Source: Escherichia coli
GTDB lineage: Bacteria; Pseudomonadota; Gammaproteobacteria; Enterobacterales; Enterobacteriaceae
Assembly (NCBI RefSeq): GCF_003018115.1
Contig: NZ_CP027457.1
Direction: 5' to 3' (one strand)
DNA length: 64,000 nucleotides
Position numbers and translations under genes: made by a program
Part shown: in pieces, positions 42,637-43,373 of the stretch
How the letters are laid out: each line of letters starts with the position of its first letter
How positions within the stretch are numbered: the stretch's first letter is position 1
Notes under the pieces: model-generated
Told to the model about the DNA's origin: nothing
The model's input: the letters and a program-made list of their open reading frames with translations, nothing else
The model's database searches: none

Positions 42637-43373
42637 ATGAAACTTTCACTCTCACCTCCCCCTTATGCTGATGCACCCGTAGTGGTGTTGATTTCGGGTC
42701 TTGGCGGTAGCGGCAGTTACTGGTTACCGCAACTGGCGGTGCTGGAGCAGGAGTATCAGGTAGTCTGTTACGACCAGCGCGGCACCGGCAATAATCCCGA
42801 CACACTGGCAGAAGATTACAGTATCGCCCAGATGGCAGCGGAACTGCATCAGGCGCTGGTAGCCGCAGGGATTGAGCATTACGCAGTGGTCGGCCATGCG
42901 CTCGGTGCGCTGGTGGGAATGCAGCTGGCGCTGGATTATCCCGCGTCGGTAACTGTGCTGGTCTGCGTTAACGGCTGGCTACGAATAAACGCCCATACGC
43001 GCCGCTGTTTTCAGGTTCGCGAACGATTACTGTATAGCGGTGGCGCGCAGGCATGGGTGGAAGCGCAGCCGTTGTTCCTCTATCCCGCCGACTGGATGGC
43101 GGCCCGCGCACCTCGCCTTGAGGCAGAAGACGCGCTGACTTTAGTCACCATGCGGATCGCATCCGCTGCCCGGTGCAAATCATCTGCGCCAGTGATGATC
43201 TGCTGGTGCCATCAGCATGTTCCAGTGAACTTCATGCCGCCCTGCCCGATAGCCAGAAAATGGTGATGCGCTATGGCGGACACGCCTGCAACGTGACCGA
43301 TCCCGAAACGTTTAATGCTCTGTTACTCAACGGGCTTGCCAGCCTGTTACATCACCGTGAAGCCGCCCTGTAA
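42637..43373 (+). pseudogene. rutD: RutD alpha/beta hydrolase, apparently disrupted by a frameshift or small deletion
   Basis: N-terminal 200+ residues in one frame (ORF 42610..43266) and the C-terminal 66 residues ([10 protein letters not shown]...HHREAAL) in another (ORF 43173..43373); the break falls near 43140-43175. Confidence 0.7.

Follow-up and report, generated by a model that had tools for sequence, protein, structure and literature searches.

Introduction

Microhomology-mediated (slipped-strand) deletion at short direct repeats is a classic source of bacterial pseudogenes. We describe here an allele of rutD that appears to have arisen in this way, found in a 64,000-nt stretch of Escherichia coli DNA (hereafter the window).

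RutD (TIGR03611; PDB 3V48) is encoded in the rutABCDEFG operon of E. coli. Deamination of 3-aminoacrylate is carried out by RutC and not by RutD, for which the present model proposes assistance to the spontaneous hydrolysis of carbamate (Buckner et al. 2021, PMC8113886). Truncated RutD still permits growth on uridine as sole nitrogen source, and growth on uridine is restored even by a plasmid-borne operon carrying inactive RutC together with truncated RutD; the earlier phenotype of delta-rutD, no growth on uridine, was shown to result from polarity on the downstream genes (PMC8113886). The laboratory truncation, deltaV16-L250 (Buckner et al. 2021), resembles the allele of the window, a predicted null, in that RutD is lost while the operon is otherwise intact, and it supported growth on uridine. 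It differs in being engineered, in frame and plasmid-borne, whereas the window allele is a chromosomal frameshift.

A natural and independent loss of RutD at microhomology, likewise with the other operon genes kept, is found in strain ChlosBP-23-1 (NZ_CP048603.1). In this strain about 528 bp have been deleted in frame at AACGGCTGG, which encodes NGW, yielding a rutD'-'rutE fusion (L007, 3101..3964) joining RutD residues 1-114 to RutE from about residue 24, and the coding sequence is annotated as malonic semialdehyde reductase. The fusion is unlike the rutD of the window in its size, its preserved frame, its junction and its strain background.

The rut locus and the 64-bp deletion in rutD

The pyrimidine-utilisation locus rutR/rutABCDEFG occupies 39.5-45.8 kb of the window, with rutR on the minus strand followed by rutA, B, C, D, E, F and G, and its gene order follows the operons annotated in E. 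coli F9792 and F8111-1SC3 (Table 1). The rutD sequence lies between rutC and rutE in the operon that the divergent rutR adjoins, so that its position and its neighbours are those of the known gene, and its DNA identity outside the deletion is 100%. Among about 38 collinear genes between 24.9 and 64 kb of the window, rutD is the sole disrupted gene, indicating that the region is not in general decay.

Table 1. Coordinates of the rut genes and of the parts of the disrupted rutD in the window
Feature	Position	Strand	Remark
rutR	39522..40160	-	intact
rutA	40448..41539	+	intact
rutB	41539..42231	+	intact
rutC	42243..42629	+	intact
rutD pseudogene	42637..43373	+	737 bp vs 801 bp; F9792 rutD 100% identical save the 64-bp gap
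RutD residues 1-167, native frame	42637..43137	+	includes GHALG nucleophile elbow, residues 86-90; TIGR03611 positions 1-170
deletion junction	43130..43137	+	single kept copy of the 8-bp direct repeat ACGCGCTG
out-of-frame tail, 42 aberrant codons and new stop TGA (43264-43266)	43138..43266	+	
native residues 190-266 and native stop, other frame	43140..43373	+	includes Asp208/209 and His237; TIGR03611 positions 191-257
stop-to-rutE gap	43267..43382	+	116 nt, untranslated unless re-initiation occurs; 9 nt in the intact operon
rutE	43383..43973	+	intact; own AAGGA Shine-Dalgarno sequence
rutF	43984..44478	+	intact
rutG	44499..45827	+	intact

The initial annotation had proposed, from two open reading frames, that rutD appears frameshifted, consistent with a small deletion or indel. 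Both frames were recovered as described, one at 42610..43266 (218 aa from an upstream TTG, or 209 aa from ATG 42637, the true start as given by the reference annotation) and the other at 43173..43373 (66 aa). The reference for base-by-base comparison was the intact gene of E. coli F9792 (L001, 3101..3901), which has 801 bp and encodes 266 aa. The rutD of the window is identical to it over the first 501 bases and over the last 244, these two stretches overlapping by 8 bases, and 64 bases are missing, in agreement with the proposed deletion. The break itself was correctly called, but its suggested position near 43140-43175 lies slightly too far downstream of the junction. Similarly, the C-terminal part is indeed read in another frame, but it comprises 77 native residues from 43140 rather than the 66 first counted, a number that applies only when counting begins at the earliest potential start codon of this frame. 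Among the matches listed for complete E. coli genomes, all alignments were split into two pieces, with 1001 bases against 937 in the query.

The overlap is the octamer ACGCGCTG, which occurs twice in intact rutD, at gene nt 494-501 and again at 558-565, a spacing of exactly 64 bp. As in known slipped-strand deletions, the lost segment is bounded on either side by an exact 8-bp repeat, of which one copy is kept, and the change is irreversible. As judged from this arrangement, the rutD of the window bears the signature of a deletion between short direct repeats. Hairpin-assisted slippage was considered and rejected, as no unusual hairpin was detected between the repeats in the deleted segment (z = 0.23), and compared with the classic deletions of this type nothing unusual was found. 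Four direct repeats of at least 8 bp within 200 bp occur by chance in intact rutD. With comparable repeats at hand and no unusual hairpin, the ACGCGCTG repeat is considered to be an ordinary substrate without any designed feature. We propose that a slipped-strand or microhomology-mediated event between these chance repeats removed the 64 bp. As the number 64 is not divisible by three, the reading frame shifts after residue 167.

The broken RutD product

The frameshifted product is a protein of 209 aa, consisting of 167 native and 42 aberrant residues. Residues 168-189 of RutD are deleted, while residues 190-200 are still encoded and read out of frame. The RutD family model TIGR03611 is matched by the 167 N-terminal residues as well as by the 77 C-terminal residues encoded out of frame; unlike intact RutD, however, the window sequence lacks the 64 bp corresponding to model positions 171-190, its frame is broken, and the acid and histidine positions are absent from the product. 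A full-length match in a single frame was thus not obtained, positions 1-170 being in one frame and 191-257 in another, with 171-190 absent.

The active site of RutD was mapped by alignment of the intact protein to the solved alpha/beta-hydrolases 6EB3 and 3FOB, together with a remark in the ESTHER paper. By this mapping the GHALG elbow falls at the GxSxG position, the acid is Asp208/209 and the histidine is His237, both located after the break. The elbow is therefore kept, but the acid and the histidine are not on the same polypeptide. The product lacks the last segment of the cap domain and, from the alpha/beta-hydrolase core, the C-terminal strands; the conserved acid and the histidine are likewise missing. 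From these losses we infer that the rutD of the window is a null allele.

The curated cut-off of TIGR03611, the RutD equivalog model, is 238.5 bits as a whole-protein score. The intact F9792 allele scored 408.6 bits, and the 209-aa product of the window scored 267.4 bits although it covers only positions 1-170 of 258. Because the truncated product stays above the cut-off, it is named RutD ("pyrimidine utilization protein D") in public records. Automated annotation accordingly gives the 209-aa product (42637..43263 in the window) the name RutD and flags no pseudogene. Within the C-terminal remnant, gene callers give open reading frames of 35 or 37 aa.

Consequences for the downstream genes and for pyrimidine breakdown

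Loss of RutD had been expected in the initial annotation to make the Rut pathway accumulate the aminoacrylate intermediate. This expectation does not agree with the finding that 3-aminoacrylate is deaminated by RutC and that RutD is dispensable for growth on uridine (PMC8113886). Since RutD merely accelerates a step that proceeds spontaneously, and laboratory growth on uridine does not require the protein, the effect of losing RutD alone should be mild.

Polarity on rutE, rutF and rutG would then be the only real risk from this allele. Since the laboratory delta-rutD was polar on downstream genes, polarity of the natural frameshift is plausible. Strong polarity, in which untranslated RNA lowers expression of rutEFG so far that the whole Rut pathway is effectively disabled, is an alternative to which we give roughly one chance in four. 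In its favour are the failure of the laboratory delta-rutD to grow on uridine (PMC8113886) and the position of rutE, 116 nt past the new stop instead of 9 nt. Against it, nothing resembling a terminator was detected in the gap (43267..43382), a short stretch with just a slight richness in C (C 35, G 29), and rutE has its own AAGGA ribosome-binding site. The new stop also overlaps an in-frame ATG as TGATG (43264-43268), and this overlap could permit re-initiation of translation through to the native stop. Furthermore, rutE, rutF and rutG are intact in every carrier read, including those with diverged flanks; rutR and rutA-C are likewise intact in these carriers, as they are in the window. Taken together, the carriers are likely to have a Rut pathway that is functional or slightly slower, with at most moderate polarity on rutEFG.

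Carriers, distribution and origin of the allele

On 94 public contigs there is a record of precisely this 209-aa product, which is named in E. coli KTE196 and TA447 and is listed in 136 index blocks. Each of the five independent assemblies that were read has the identical 46-nt junction; four of them are NCBI drafts from different projects and one is a Logan raw-read assembly (GCA_015674585.1, GCA_000627885.1, GCA_910665005.1, GCA_002110175.1 and Logan SRR24917758). TA447 is among the five, and over 8.6 kb its contig shows 100% identity to the window. This commensal strain, which comes from the marsupial Bettongia lesueur, has been used in published strain panels for essentiality and RNA-seq.

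Two further sequences were examined as carriers and rejected: Nissle 1917 CP007799 and CE418, in which a 66-aa C-terminal fragment is annotated, have loci without the junction, on short contigs or in gap-ridden assemblies. In the Nissle 1917 record (L008, CP007799, 5294020-5297220) the rut alignment begins only inside rutD, with 13 gap openings and unrelated genes before it; this locus looks like a problem of assembly quality or a rearrangement, and not like the 64-bp deletion.

The distribution of the allele was determined with a junction probe of 46 nt, the halves of which are below the 28-nt word size, so that intact rutD cannot seed a match. A junction query of 91 nt did not distinguish carriers from intact genomes, since each of its halves aligns and the two alignments are joined. 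With the 46-nt probe, none of the 5,426 complete RefSeq E. coli genomes gave a match, an absence that may partly reflect the make-up of the collection, since at least two chromosome-sized contigs carry the allele yet stand outside it. In about 3,500 of the 5,426 genomes the flanking halves match with an identity of 99% or more, and the deletion would thus have shown there. No match to the rutD junction was found in a scan of JGI metagenome contigs.

Comparison of the carriers with the window indicated that L002 and L005 are equal to it, L003 differs by 1 SNP, L004 by 82 SNPs and L006 by 50 SNPs. These differences are confined to putA-rutR-rutA5' or to rutG-wrbA. From the 3' part of rutA through rutF, the carriers differ by only 0-1 SNP, whether compared with one another or with the intact allele of F9792. 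The deletion allele therefore combines one conserved core haplotype with at least three different flanking backgrounds. Alignment of window 38637..47266 with L001-L006 gave a mosaic, with dense tracts of mostly third-position SNPs in rutR-rutA5' and in rutG and a nearly invariant rutA3'-rutF segment, and this mosaic points to recombination breakpoints inside rutA and rutG.

Haplotype identity at this one locus makes a single origin of the deletion most likely. The allele would have arisen once, on one rutA3'-rutF haplotype, in an E. coli group including TA447 and KTE196, and homologous recombination may then have moved it into, or kept it on, different flanking backgrounds. Recurrent deletion at a hotspot formed by the ACGCGCTG repeats, with carriers of different flanks as independent events, would account for the 82 and 50 SNPs by which the flanks of L004 and L006 differ from the window, and both repeats are found in most E. 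coli. All carriers read nevertheless share the one core haplotype with 0-1 SNP, the segment contains no hairpin that would promote slippage, and the junction is missing both from the 5,426 complete genomes and from the JGI metagenome contigs; the lack of any match in so many genomes disfavours frequent recurrence. We consider recurrence improbable, and a single origin remains the preferred reading.

The same carriers bear on the suggestion, made in the initial annotation, that the frameshift might be a sequencing error. A sequencing or assembly artefact, with the rutD of this strain really intact, is hardly credible: the junction is common to five assemblies made by different projects and technologies, Logan included, and the product is on 94 contigs, which excludes sequencing error for the allele, while a clean loss of 64 bp with 8-bp repeat edges is typical of a biological deletion and unlike a base-calling error. 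It is just as implausible that a shortened active RutD results from reassembly of both fragments or from programmed frameshifting, as the C-terminal frame does offer possible start codons (GTG 43173, ATG 43260 and ATG 43266, the last overlapping the new stop) but no strong ribosome-binding site precedes them, no slippery-site logic was seen, the N-terminal fragment would keep its 42 aberrant residues, and the cap domain would be short of 21-22 residues even with the frame restored.

Standing of the allele

The combination of a 64-bp microhomology deletion, a RutD-null product, one origin and a mild effect is, as a whole, very probably the correct explanation. This rutD allele is an ordinary lineage-specific pseudogene from a microhomology-mediated deletion: the gene and the pathway are known, the mutational mechanism is well known, and the allele is already in public records. 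A literature search for a rutD pseudogene gave nothing relevant, the allele being undescribed in the papers searched.

The finding matters little in that it gives neither a new system nor a new mechanism. It does mark one E. coli group including TA447 as natural RutD-null strains, as predicted above, which could serve as a ready-made test of the contribution of RutD outside the laboratory. It also shows that annotation pipelines give the truncated product the name RutD, as it is still above the family cut-off. A bolder reading is that natural populations tolerate the loss of RutD or even favour it, that the allele has been spread between lineages by homologous recombination, and that the chance TGATG overlap keeps translation going through to rutE, leaving the remainder of the pathway at work; we regard this as speculative and rather unlikely. 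If loss of RutD were so tolerated or favoured, the allele would, together with the ChlosBP-23-1 fusion, lend support from natural populations to the dispensability of RutD observed in the laboratory.

Other features of the window

Positions 1..24900 of the window form a genomic island. This island carries cdiA, cut by the window start, and cdiB, for contact-dependent inhibition with an effector of the tRNA-nuclease type, as well as lutABC-like genes, an L-lactate permease, an SdiA-regulated-domain protein, a DUF3987 gene and a tyrosine integrase at about 23.5-24.7 kb. At full length the island is present in only one of the 5,426 complete E. coli genomes, 2014C-4135, at 99.9% identity. Strain 2014C-4135 was considered as a possible closest relative on account of this island and was rejected, its rutD being intact and its local gene order different.

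Between the island and phoH, at 24946..27002, a DUF2726 gene is located as in O169:H41 ETEC strains, and the pgaABCD-dgcT-ycdU block, present at this place in 2014C-4135, has no counterpart. The phoH gene (26214..27002, minus strand) is intact with 789 nt; it is annotated as frameshifted (788 nt) in F8111-1SC3, the closest complete genome. An Rfam match to Ysr251 lies antisense to phoH at 26219..26412. Between efeU and putP, a hypothetical gene of 447 aa (32097..33440, plus strand) is 100% identical to its counterpart in F8111-1SC3.
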